Source: Minisyncoccota bacterium
GTDB lineage: Bacteria; Patescibacteriota; Minisyncoccia; Phycocordibacterales; UBA1006
Length of the DNA stretch: 64,000 bases
NCBI GenBank assembly: GCA_021209525.1
Contig: JAJOIF010000009.1
Span: 22,285 to 86,284, forward strand
Direction of reading: 5' to 3'
The first letter of the stretch is position 1. Every line of letters begins with the position of its first letter. The notes beneath the pieces are model-generated. The model was not told the DNA's origin and searched no databases. It was given only the letters and a program-made list of their open reading frames with translations. Positions 15,877 to 40,870 of this stretch are shown here, piece by piece. The position numbers were made by a program, and so were the translations under genes.

Positions 15877-16821
15877 TTATTTTTTCTTGCCGTGGAATTT
15901 TTCGTGAACTTCACGCAGACGCTTGTCTGTAATATGAGTATAAATTTGTGTTGTTGCAATACTTGCATGACCGAGCATTTGCTGCACACTACGGAGGTCA
16001 GCACCATTTTCAAGGAGTCCTGTTGCAAAACTGTGTCGAATAACGTGTGGAGTCACTTTTTTGGATACACCGGCTTTGATGGCGAGTTGTTTCAAAATAC
16101 GCTCAATAGATCGCGGAGAGAGACGCAAACTCTTTTGATCTTCAAGATCCTTGGTAACGCGCGGAGACACTTGCACAAAGAGTGCTTCTTCCATGTCATC
16201 TCTTTTTTCAAGGTATGCGCGCAGGGCATCTCGCGCATCTGAAGAAATAAACACTACGCGAATTTTTTCGCCCTTTCCACGAACAGACAATTCTGATTTT
16301 GAAATATCAATATCACGATTGAGTCCAGCAAGCTCTGATACACGCAATCCCGTTGAAAAGAGAAGTTCGAGAATGGCAGTGTCTCTGAGGCTTTTGAGGT
16401 CATCCCCGCGCACCGCTTGAAACATGCGGTCGAGCTCTTGGGGTGATATGAGATCGAGACTGCGCTCACCCACCTTGGCGAGTTCAATGCGATCCGGCGC
16501 GAGCGAAGCAATGTCGCGTTTCATCATATATTTCAAAAAACTACGGAGCGCAATGAGGTAATAGTTTTGTGTTTTCTTTTTCAGCGTGCTTGTATGTTGT
16601 CCTTTGGTGCGCGCACCCATTTGCCTGTTCAGATGAAGACGAAATTCGCGCACGAGATCATCGGTAATCTCTTGGGGTTCGGTAATATTGGCAAAATCTA
16701 AAAAACGATAGAGGTACCGCTGATAATTATCAACAGTCTTGAGACTGCGCCCTTTTTCTATTTCAACATACTCGAGAAATTGATGCACCAAACTCTGTAT
16801 GCGCGTCTTGTTCTGTGTCAT
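15877..16821 (-). CDS. Tyrosine site-specific recombinase, XerC/XerD family
   Basis: The C-terminus HVIRHSFATGLLENGADLRSVQQMLGHASIATTQIYTH carries the catalytic R-H-R-Y box II. Confidence 0.85.
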   Translation of the reverse strand: MTQNKTRIQSLVHQFLEYVEIEKGRSLKTVDNYQRYLYRFLDFANITEPQEITDDLVREFRLHLNRQMGARTKGQHTSTLKKKTQNYYLIALRSFLKYMMKRDIASLAPDRIELAKVGERSLDLISPQELDRMFQAVRGDDLKSLRDTAILELLFSTGLRVSELAGLNRDIDISKSELSVRGKGEKIRVVFISSDARDALRAYLEKRDDMEEALFVQVSPRVTKDLEDQKSLRLSPRSIERILKQLAIKAGVSKKVTPHVIRHSFATGLLENGADLRSVQQMLGHASIATTQIYTHITDKRLREVHEKFHGKKK

Positions 16822-36720: not shown

Positions 36721-37257
36721 CTATGCAGCAACCTTTGATTGCTGTTCTGTAATTATTTGCTCAAGAGCACATGCTTCATGATAAAAACCATCGATTCGCG
36801 CTTCACGCAAAAATCTTTGAAGAACACCTGAATGCGCATGTCCAAATCCTGTCACAATAATTGCTCGTGTGAGGGAGCGCATATATTTTGAAGGAATTGT
36901 TTTTTTAATATTTTGTAGATGCGCCACCTGGGGCATTTCTCTGCAAAGCTCTTCTCTTTCTTTCATGCGCTCTGGATATTTTTGAGCATCATAAATAGAG
37001 AAATCAGGCAATGATACCCAATTACACATGTAGACAAAAAGGGTGAATGTAAGCGCTCCGCGAATACGCTCTTCTGACGCAGTGAGCTTTCTCGTATATT
37101 TTTTGTATTCCCCCAGTTCGTCAATAATTTCTGAAGCAGAAATTATATGCATGTATTTTTCTTCTGCGAGCCTTTTTTGTTTTTTTGTAAACTCAATAAA
37201 AGGATCGAGGGTGATGAGTGTACCATCAATCATAAATGATCTTGTTTTTGTATTCAT
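36721..37257 (-). CDS. Hypothetical protein (degenerate HAD-like N-terminus FMIDGTL)
   Basis: The frame is open, but the HAD-like motif lacks the nucleophile Asp. This is a tentative call. Confidence 0.4.
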   Translation of the reverse strand: MNTKTRSFMIDGTLITLDPFIEFTKKQKRLAEEKYMHIISASEIIDELGEYKKYTRKLTASEERIRGALTFTLFVYMCNWVSLPDFSIYDAQKYPERMKEREELCREMPQVAHLQNIKKTIPSKYMRSLTRAIIVTGFGHAHSGVLQRFLREARIDGFYHEACALEQIITEQQSKVAA

Positions 37258-37882
37258 AATAGTAAGGTTTTATTTACATCCAACATTACGCTTTTTATTA
37301 AAAAAGTCAAGAGTCTCGGCACACAGCATATTTTCACGCCCGCTGTATTTCTTGTATCTATAACACTCATGTTTTTGTGTCGCCAATATACGCAGAAGCG
37401 TATTTTATACTCATTGTTTTTTCTTATAGAAATTTTGCCACACAAACCAGCAATGATCATGGCACACCTTGCGCGCGAGCACTGTGTCTCATATATACAT
37501 GTCTTTAATAGCTCACATTACCTGTCTTTTACAAATGTCTTTGTGAAACAAGGTGTCTGTGTAGCACAAGAGCACGCACATGAAGTATGTACAGCGTTTC
37601 ACATACACAATGAAACATGAATGATCTGCACAAGAATACGAGAACAAAAGGAAATAAGAGTACTTACTCTACACACTCACACATGCAACGTATATACAAT
37701 GATGTGTTACACGGCAATACGCACTCTACAAAAAATGAAACGTCATTCATAAATTATGTGTGAAATAATGCACAGGCAGGACAGCAGATCTTGCTCATAT
37801 ATATACAGCATATATATTTCATTAATGACTCTACATGTATGCGAGCAAAAGAATCTCTTACAAATATGTGAAACACGCCGTA

Positions 37883-37984
37883 CCGCAATATCACTTGGTG
37901 TTTCATAAAAAATAAAACGAGCTTCTATAAAAAATATGTATGTGCCTATATGATTTTTGTGAAACACCAAGTGATATTATGCGG
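37883..37984. repeat. Inverted repeat of about 24 bp (arms 37883-37906 and 37959-37984, 22/24 matching) within a non-coding island containing TGTGAAAC/GTTTCACA and GTCTTT motifs
   Basis: CCGCAATATCACTTGGTGTTTCAT pairs with ATGAAACACCAAGTGATATTATGCGG. The arms are about 52 nt apart. Confidence 0.55.
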
Positions 37985-38064
37985 GTCGTATTAATTCTTT
38001 AGGAAAAATAAAAGACCCTCCTGATTAAAAAAATGGGGGTCTTTGTCTGTAAGTCATTTTGTCG

Positions 38065-38526
38065 CTAAGAGTCGAGCGACACCTTGCGCATAGAGCGGAG
38101 CTGCATAAGCGCGGCCTTATCAAGTGTTGCGAGAAATCCGCCAACAGAAACCTTGCTCAGAATTTCAATAATTTGATACTGTGCCTCTGTTTGAAAAATA
38201 GAAAGTAAAAATTTGAGCACCGCTAAATTTTTATTCTCTTTAATTTTTTCATCGAGGGTTTGGGCAAGATTATTTTGCTGCGCAGCCTGTGCGAGTCTTG
38301 TAAATAATTGAGCATTTGCATCTCTTAAGAAGTATTCAAAATCTATACCCTGCCACAGCAGGGCAAGTTCTTTTTTTTCTGGCTCTGAGAGCAGGGATAA
38401 TATTTTTGCATAATACTTTATCTTTTGCTCATCTCTTTGAGATAGCATATGGTCGACAAATTGTGATGAGAATTGTGATAATGCCATAGTGGTATATTTT
38501 ATTTTGAGAGAATATTTACTTACCAC
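38065..38526 (-). CDS. Hypothetical all-alpha protein
   Basis: The frame is open. The true start may be the Met at 38489. Confidence 0.4.
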   Translation of the reverse strand: MVSKYSLKIKYTTMALSQFSSQFVDHMLSQRDEQKIKYYAKILSLLSEPEKKELALLWQGIDFEYFLRDANAQLFTRLAQAAQQNNLAQTLDEKIKENKNLAVLKFLLSIFQTEAQYQIIEILSKVSVGGFLATLDKAALMQLRSMRKVSLDS

Positions 38527-40381: not shown

Positions 40382-40448
40382 ACGTAGTCAAGGAACGATT
40401 TTACACCACCAACACCAAAGCGGCCTACAAAATTTTCTCTTTGCTCAT

Positions 40449-40590
40449 ATAATGTCTTTTATAAAAACTTGCAAAACATTGCTGTATATAATGAATACAT
40501 ACACAATATGCATACGGTTATCCCTAAAAGACACATACTTATCCACAGGTAATTTTGCTAAACGACACTTACTTGCTATAATGTCTTTGA
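40449..40590. repeat. Non-coding island sharing the 17-mer AATGTCTTTTATAAAAA (40451-40467), AAAAGACACAT (40526-40536) and a perfect TTATCCACA box (40539-40547) with the 9697-9912 island
   Basis: The matches are direct sequence identity. Confidence 0.55.
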
Positions 40591-40870
40591 TAGTTCTTTC
40601 CGCTGATCTTTTATAATTGCATATATTTGCACATTCAGCTAGCGCTGTCATTCGTAATTTCTTTCCAAAGAATTTACTTTACATACAAACAATAAAAAAC
40701 AAAAGCAACGCACACACACATAAAAACTTTACCTTTCAGAACTTTCCCTTGAACTCTTTCAAGGAAACCACACAATATATTAAAGCCGCTCTTCCGCAAT
40801 TTTGAGTGGCTTTTCTTTTTCTTGAAAAAAAATGATATACTGACATACGTAGCTATTAATTTATATACAT

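Follow-up and report, generated by a model that had tools for sequence, protein, structure and literature searches.

A lineage-restricted, conserved intergenic array of single parS arms 28 kb from the parS cluster of a patescibacterial genome

The spacer at positions 37258–38064 of the 64,000-nucleotide stretch of DNA analysed here (the window), which we call island B, holds eight to nine single parS arms (GTGAAACA, ATGAAAC, and GTTACAC) that form, together with TGTCTTT words, a conserved but lineage-restricted intergenic array, 28 kb away from the real parS cluster of the genome. The words are parS arms and are strongly over-represented, no full parS site accompanies them, and three lineages agree in how the words are ordered, oriented, and approximately spaced. 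Judging from the sequence, we regard the case as evenly balanced that island B is a selected platform for weak ParB binding and not a mobile repeat; we infer ParB as the binder, and likewise the effect of its binding.

The 14-mer GTTTCACGTGAAAC, the motif of a first-pass annotation of the window, is the core of the canonical chromosomal parS sequence TGTTTCACGTGAAACA, the ParB/Spo0J site (PMC5450999, PMC7053999). The annotation's proposal of sites for an unidentified DNA-binding protein was right in spirit, and the kind of protein can be named, since the 14-mer is the core of parS. The scan that it recommended (14-mer, ≤2 mismatches, over the window) returned eight matches, all in 8954–10984 and none in island B. 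With the 16-mer TGTTTCACGTGAAACA and up to 3 mismatches, the window contained seven matches against 0.54 expected, all of them in the following feature.

8953–9612: island A, the true parS cluster of the genome, in which seven sites differ from TGTTTCACGTGAAACA by at most 3 mismatches; relatives have orthologous clusters next to yraN and cca.

Island B contained 0 sites within 3 mismatches of TGTTTCACGTGAAACA over 37258–38064 and does not qualify as a centromere. Islands A and B thus differ in nature, the former being a true parS cluster and the latter having single arms only. No shared function was found for the genes that flank islands A and B, which the annotation had suggested looking for.

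In relatives, perfect or near-perfect parS clusters occupy the orthologous yraN/cca locus, often inside the yraN ORF, which indicates that the clade uses this ParB/parS system. Island A is most readily taken as the orthologous centromere, and the conservation of parS suggests that ParB is present in this genome. A parB gene was found neither in the window nor in the relatives' loci examined (Pfam and a GERRxRA motif scan), and parA and dnaA are also missing from the window. Full parS sites of the relatives L006 and L007 include the arm variant GTTACAC too. Island B, judged by its distance from comM, might correspond in position to the parS cluster that relatives have upstream of comM, but synteny mapping rejects this correspondence and shows that cluster to be orthologous to island A.

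Counted within 2–3 mismatches of TGTTTCACGTGAAACA, seven to eight parS sites lie at 8953–9612 (and 10971), those at 8953 and 8968 inside a UPF0102/YraN-like ORF (8770–9159). Clusters orthologous to island A are beside or inside yraN in the Parcubacteria L002, L007, L008, L032, L087, and L088. Island A also contains a 38-codon ORF (9198–9314, minus strand) for the hydrophobic peptide MHWFILIIVSLLASIFIEWWLGIVIFFVVRAIINWIG. The cca ORF (10935–12416) carries six parS-arm heptamers in the window and six to eight arms or full sites in some relatives, at non-homologous codons (relatives including L007 1–918, L042, and L045); the gene body next to the centromere seems also to be used for ParB binding in several lineages. 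At 1250–1750 of L088 (MKWU01000458.1), tandem units of ~135 bp, each with three to four parS sites, adjoin yraN and form a predicted amplified centromere array in another Parcubacteria genome.

The features of island B are given below; the motif sites and the hairpin at 38010 were read directly in the letters.

37258–38064: island B, an 807-bp non-coding spacer between the ORFans h178 and h153 (both on the minus strand), 35% G+C.
37258–37282, minus strand: block upstream of the h178 start, whose minus strand reads ...TGGATGTAAATAAAACCTTACTA; alignment columns 14–36 are nearly invariant in four islands.
37499–37542, plus strand: three TGTCTTT words, ATGTCTTTAA, TGTCTTTTAC, and ATGTCTTTG, starting at 37500, 37523, and 37536.
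37542–37550, plus strand: parS arm TGTGAAACA, with the perfect 8-nt arm GTGAAACA.
37595–37603, minus strand: parS arm, plus-strand text CGTTTCACA, conserved in L084, L086, and L089.
37610–37617, plus strand: parS arm variant ATGAAACA.
37706–37714, minus strand: GTTACACGG, carrying GTTACAC, an arm variant at position 5; all three lineages have the 9-mer.
37735–37742, plus strand: parS arm variant ATGAAACG, kept as ATGAAAC in L084, L086, and L089.
37759–37770, plus strand: degenerate arm TGTGAAATAATG (TGTGAAAT at 37759); TGAAATAATG also occurs in L084 and L086.
37867–37876, plus strand: 10-mer TGTGAAACAC, invariant in 4/4 aligned islands.
37883–37984: inverted repeat or hairpin, with core arms 37887–37911 and 37954–37978 (25 nt, 24/25 complementary, 42 nt apart).
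37898–37906, minus strand: parS arm, plus-strand text GTGTTTCAT, in the left hairpin arm; it has a counterpart in L089 and is degenerate in L084.
37958–37967, plus strand: TGTGAAACAC, in the right hairpin arm; it corresponds to the relatives' last RTGAAACA before the h153 terminator.
38010–38045, minus strand: hairpin AAAGACCC...GGGGGTCTTT followed by a T-run.

Island B carries seven GTTTCA[CT]/[AG]TGAAAC heptamers on its two strands, against 0.38 expected from its own first-order composition and a maximum of four in 5000 simulations, and no 800-bp cluster of more than five was seen in 200 simulated windows. The seven lie within 424 bp, compared with 0.3 per kb outside the parS neighbourhood, and all are isolated, each being one parS arm without a partner; GTTACAC and TGAAAT variants come in addition. 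The word TGTGAAAC occurs nine times in the window against 3.3 expected, a count that was reached in 0 of 100 shuffles; in island B the plus strand has it at 37542, 37867, and 37958, and the minus strand at 37596. Three of the window's five perfect 8-nt arms GTGAAACA are in island B, as are seven of its 27 RTGAAACR words, with six in 9160–10080 and three more in 8953–9090. When islands A and B were taken together, GTGAAAC was enriched 36-fold and GTCTTTTA 45-fold. The vocabulary that the annotation had noticed in both island B and the island at 9–10 kb is thus genuine, and so are its individual motif sites, each within ~10 nt of the position given; the site at 37610 had been missed. Its reservation that the motif might be no commoner than on shuffling is not borne out by the counts for TGTGAAAC. 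The base preceding GTGAAAC is always T in island B and C inside full parS. The minus-strand arm at 37595–37603 and the arm at 37610 form a palindrome split by 7 bp.

The ParB of P. aeruginosa binds the heptamers GTTCCAC, GTTTCAC, and GTTTCAT in vivo without spreading (Kawalek et al. 2018, 2023; PMC5961200, PMC10419367), and Burkholderia ParBs and V. cholerae ParB2 also bind half-sites (PMC5450999, PMC3688505). Like the half-parS of P. aeruginosa, the sites of island B are one-arm heptamers without a second arm, and GTTTCAC and GTTTCAT are among the variants bound there. The P. aeruginosa sites, however, number hundreds, are scattered, and are mostly intragenic, whereas island B has eight to nine predicted sites in one 450-bp stretch of spacer. 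Instead of a random genomic scatter, island B shows clustering and an arrangement kept in three lineages, with order and orientation conserved and with co-inheritance of two ORFan genes. Canonical parS, TGTTTCACGTGAAACA, the site of ParB (Spo0J), has the same arm as island B, and a true cluster of it is present in the same genome (8953–9612); in relatives the canonical clusters are surrounded by the word TGTCYTTT, as in island B. Unlike canonical parS, island B lacks any 16-bp palindrome within 3 mismatches, and for that reason it is expected neither to load ParB-CTP clamps nor to serve as a centromere. The half-parS2 bound by V. cholerae ParB2 in the oriCII 39-mer (PMC3688505) is likewise a single arm outside a centromere, with a regulatory, non-segregation role, but it is one site in a replication-control element, requires flanking sequence, and belongs to a different ParB family with a different word (TGTAAA). 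Plasmid centromeres such as parC of R1 and sopC of F resemble island B in being non-coding arrays of short protein-binding words near small genes. Island B differs from them in that no partition NTPase gene is nearby, the repeats are irregularly spaced and in both orientations, and the locus is chromosomal and vertically inherited.

The inverted repeat and the GTCTTTT motifs described in the first-pass annotation were both recovered, the former with arms matching at 24/25 positions and the latter as the three TGTCTTT words. The repeat reaches 37883–37984 with a 2-nt bulge, has a folding energy of −45 kcal/mol, and gave folding z-scores of −7.6 and −6.6. Its arms, when joined, yield a 40-bp palindrome centred on the junction of TGTTTCAT and GTGAAACA, which amounts to a parS-like site split by ~52 bp. 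The long hairpin is absent from the aligned islands of L084, L086, and L089 and is probably a lineage-specific rearrangement.

The energy of −45 kcal/mol and the z-score of −7.6 would suit a small non-coding RNA, comprising the hairpin or the whole island, in which the inverted words form RNA helices, as would the complementarity of TGTGAAACAC and GTGTTTCA, which are both present in the window and L089. We consider such an RNA improbable. Among the Rfam 15 families none matched island B at its gathering threshold and nothing real appeared at E up to 10; the matches were generic hairpins far below threshold, the best being a plant miRNA-precursor model at 38.6 bits (threshold 90). The island body outside the hairpin folded no better than shuffles (z −0.15 and −0.86), the long hairpin is missing in the other lineages, and the partner word in L084 has a mismatch with no compensatory change. 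Moreover, a single word that recurs in either orientation is more in keeping with a DNA-binding site than with separate RNA helices.

The first-pass annotation had also offered a MITE-like dispersed repeat family as an explanation of the shared words. The 25-nt inverted repeat, the ORFan nature of the flanking genes, and an IS30-like transposase inside the island in L086 are what one would expect of such a repeat, or of a plasmid or phage insert with its own centromere or origin. This explanation is scarcely credible in view of the remaining evidence: no second copy occurs in the 64 kb, and apart from its own hairpin island B has no extended similarity to island A or to other parts of the window, the words in common being ≤15 nt long. 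The palindrome runs on into the flanks CCGC and GCGG, and no direct repeat that would mark a target-site duplication was seen. Island B gave no match in plasmid or phage collections, its flanking proteins gave no PHROG match, and its syntenic position in the chromosome is fixed in three lineages. An insert with its own origin is further opposed by the finding of no DnaA box within 1 mismatch in island B. Island B was also rejected as an oriC, because it has no cluster of TTATCCACA-type DnaA boxes, the genes on its two sides have the same orientation, and the cumulative GC skew does not change direction at this place.

No hidden genes were found in island B: ORFs of ≥25 aa translate into Cys/His-rich junk and the NCBI annotation has none, and one 83-aa ORF is called in the Logan annotation. 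Reading the sequence of island B revealed no CRP-type TGTGA-N6-TCACA palindromes. The block at 37258–37282 is probably the proximal promoter or leader of h178, a role suggested by its position and near-invariance, and the nearest arm (37542) is ~260 bp beyond it. At the other end, the hairpin at 38010–38045 is probably the intrinsic terminator of h153; the terminator scanner did not list it because its loop exceeds 8 nt, and analogous hairpins occur at the same place in L084 and L089.

The two genes on either side of island B are as follows.

36721–37257, minus strand: h178, a 178-aa ORFan downstream of the island; homologues of ~25% identity stand at the same place in L084 and L086.
38065–38487 from the ATG (ORF to 38526), minus strand: h153, 140 aa from the ATG and 153 aa from an upstream GTG.

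The order NYN, the 178-aa ORFan h178, the island, the 140-aa ORFan h153, and a 319-aa gene is kept in two further lineages, which gives three in total: the window, L084 with L086, and L089–L091. The flanking proteins of the other two lineages are 25–38% identical to those of the window. L084 and L086 (ENA ERZ27301260) have the end of NYN, an h178-like gene (25% identity), a spacer of 776 or 739 bp, and an h153-like gene (31–35%); in L089–L091 (Logan), the neighbourhood from DUF389 to M29 is wholly colinear with the window and the spacer measures 562 bp. We compared these three lineages and aligned four islands (window, L084, L086, and L089); L001, L082, and L083 are 99.9–100% identical to the window and are for this reason uninformative on fine-scale conservation. 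Of two contigs from one sample that are otherwise ~90% identical, one (L086) has an IS30-like (HTH_38) gene inserted at 1575–2522, where it separates the island from the h178 homologue.

Coding DNA was 68–81% identical between the module lineages, and the island DNA gave no BLAST match between them. Despite this, the module spacers contain the same words in the same order and orientation.

Word 1: ATGTCTTT(T)A.
Word 2, minus strand: GTTTCACA.
Word 3, minus strand: GTTACACGG.
Word 4, plus strand: ATGAAAC.
Word 5, plus strand: TGTGAAACAC, invariant at 10/10 positions in all four sequences.
Word 6, minus strand: GTGTTTCAT, in the window and L089; degenerate in L084.
Word 7, plus strand: RTGAAACA, just before the h153 terminator.

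The spacings between words agree within ~10–35 bp among the module lineages. The window and L084 had 16 colinear 8-mers in common against a null value of 4.8 ± 1.8 (P ~0.001), and the bases flanking each individual site are conserved from lineage to lineage (TGTGAAACAC and GTTACACGG). No full parS palindrome was found in the module spacer of any of the lineages. The perfect single arms, their unrelated partner halves, and the saturation of the surrounding DNA indicate selection on the arms and not a decaying parS cluster. That island B is the decaying relic of such a cluster, or an origin-proximal segment that was duplicated and now has no function, is therefore very improbable in our estimation. 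This reading could draw on the movement and turnover of parS clusters among yraN, cca, and downstream spacers in this clade, on the rearrangement of the cca–comM region in the window relative to relatives, and on the hairpin, in which one can read a parS-like palindrome with its halves 52 bp apart. However, the arms are perfect 8–10-mers whose would-be partner halves have no residual similarity, the same arms recur in the same order in lineages with saturated neutral DNA, and in no lineage has a full site been kept there.

The array is restricted in its distribution. In the NYN–dksA interval of 44 relatives, arms occur at a background density of 0.41 per kb, and the genes are contiguous in many of them. 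A scan of metagenome DNA for GTTTCACA...ATGAAAC...TGTGAAACAC matched only ordinary yraN-associated parS clusters.

The TGTCTTT words accompany the arms in the islands of L084, L086, and L089 as well, and TGTCTTT(T)A also occurs in island A and, throughout the clade, in the surroundings of true parS clusters. In relatives, TGTCTTT(T)A was ten-fold enriched near full parS, with 1.43 per kb at distances of up to 500 bp and 0.15 per kb elsewhere (P ~5e-19), and near the relatives' parS clusters it often adjoins DnaA boxes.

Searches with the flanking proteins returned few relatives. No homologue of h178 was found in a scan of GTDB genomes, and a word-indexed search of 5.8 billion proteins retrieved only h178 itself; its AlphaFold model, predicted alone, has a pLDDT of 40 and is unusable. 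The h153 proteins form a small, all-helical family, 31–38% identical across lineages, with three distant relatives from an exhaustive HMMER search, a fourth from a profile search, and five clusters in 5.8 billion proteins; a metagenome protein scan gave no member. The AlphaFold model of h153 has nine helices (pLDDT 83.5, pTM 0.74), and it has no Foldseek neighbour in the PDB and no match among PDB sequences or Pfam. A recognisable DNA-binding domain was found in neither protein.

The array may instead be the platform of a different, lineage-specific protein that binds (T)GTGAAAC(A), either as a monomer or at an unusual spacing, with h153 or h178 as candidates and the likeness to parS arms as co-option or coincidence. 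We regard this as somewhat unlikely. It is favoured by the co-inheritance of h178, the island, and h153 in three lineages, by the conservation of site-specific flanks, and by the recurrence in the window and L089 of the split palindrome GTTTCAC-N6/7-RTGWAAC, which favours some fixed architecture. The confident all-helical model of h153, which has no known structural neighbour, neither supports nor excludes such a role. On the other side, h153 and h178 have no recognisable DNA-binding domain, the word is the exact arm of this genome's own full parS sites, and GTTACAC is also a parS-arm variant in relatives. Furthermore, the arm and TGTCYTTT co-occur around true parS clusters throughout the clade, where h153 and h178 are absent.

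If island B is a platform for ParB, the protein, encoded elsewhere in the genome, would recognise each arm with one helix-turn-helix domain and at low affinity. Loading of the ParB-CTP clamp requires parS. Because the two-arm palindrome is absent, the CTP-dependent sliding clamp would not close on island B; the array would instead hold or bridge ParB near the origin-proximal domain. Alternatively, it could provide local ParB-dependent control of the adjacent ORFan genes. Island B would thus be a local sink, bridge, or regulator of ParB, and no second centromere. Several points speak against ParB: the conserved flanks exceed what a 7-nt half-site needs and could point to another protein or to a fixed nucleoprotein architecture; known half-parS do not form an array in a single spacer but are dispersed, for the most part inside genes; the comparison extends to three lineages; the co-conservation of TGTCTTT with the arms is not explained by ParB; and, besides the lack of parB in the window and the relatives' loci examined, the base before GTGAAAC is T and not C.

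A bolder proposal, which we think rather unlikely, is that h153, the half-site array, and h178 constitute a self-contained nucleoprotein module of a Parcubacteria lineage, undescribed so far. The new-fold helical protein, or ParB together with it, would then assemble on the ordered single arms and TGTCTTT words. Half-parS binding would in that event gain a selected, architecture-dependent function, for example the anchoring or insulating of the ParB partition complex or the coupling of segregation to expression of the module.

Arms kept in order, orientation, and spacing amid divergence would be the first comparative evidence of selection on half-site binding, and island B offers a compact 450-bp substrate on which half-site binding could be assayed in vitro. 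The analysis also places a canonical ParB/parS system and a chromosomal landmark, the yraN–cca locus with its adjacent DnaA boxes, in Patescibacteria. To our knowledge, chromosome organisation in Patescibacteria is essentially unstudied.

In its gene content the window is a typical patescibacterial locus (trigger factor, RNase Y, PGK, RecJ, ComEC, ribosomal proteins, and a PrgI-like protein), and its ComM is at best 58% identical to that of Parcubacteria-type MAGs. In 80 related loci, the conserved order is yraN on the minus strand, the parS cluster, cca on the plus strand, a few kb, rpsO, NYN, h319, dksA, and comM. The interval between cca and rpsO (12416–35650) spans ~23 kb in the window against 2–3 kb in most relatives and holds a Xer-type recombinase (15877–16821), PGK, RecJ, RNase H, ComEC, and ribosomal-protein genes, which implies that the lineage of the window has undergone rearrangement or insertion on a large scale between cca and rpsO. 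A 20-nt fragment at 10010–10029 (plus strand) matches the 3' end of tRNA-Gly at 20/22 positions, inverted and facing the intact tRNA-Gly(GCC) gene (10078–10149, minus strand), with only a bidirectional terminator-like hairpin between them. In L002, a tRNA-Gly lies on that side of the parS island on which the window has the fragment, which suggests that the fragment marks an old rearrangement breakpoint.

Three tandem DnaA-box-like 9-mers (TTATGCACC, TTATTCACC, and TTATCCACA) follow GTCTTTTAT at 9715–9750, and the block GTCTTTTAT...TTATCCACAG is conserved beside the parS cluster in L008, L024, L055, L002, and L027. Gene orientation diverges at this place and the GC skew has no minimum; the region is a candidate oriC or DnaA-regulated region.

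A third AT-rich spacer, 40400–40870 (core 40526–40613), lies between a 91-aa minus-strand ORF and dksA. It contains TATAATGTCTTT twice (40448 and 40577) and a perfect DnaA box, CTTATCCACAGG, at 40539; downstream of this box, a TGTCTTT word directly follows an extended −10 element (TGcTATAAT, then GTCTTT). The core is 80% identical in L089 (4757–4846), where it is called within a 91-aa ORF, and it looks like a DnaA-box-bearing extended −10 promoter or the start of a small RNA. The 15-mer ATGTCTTTTATAAAA occurs three times in the window, at 9818, 26422 (minus strand), and 40452, one copy being just upstream of the ribosomal-protein block near 26.4 kb.
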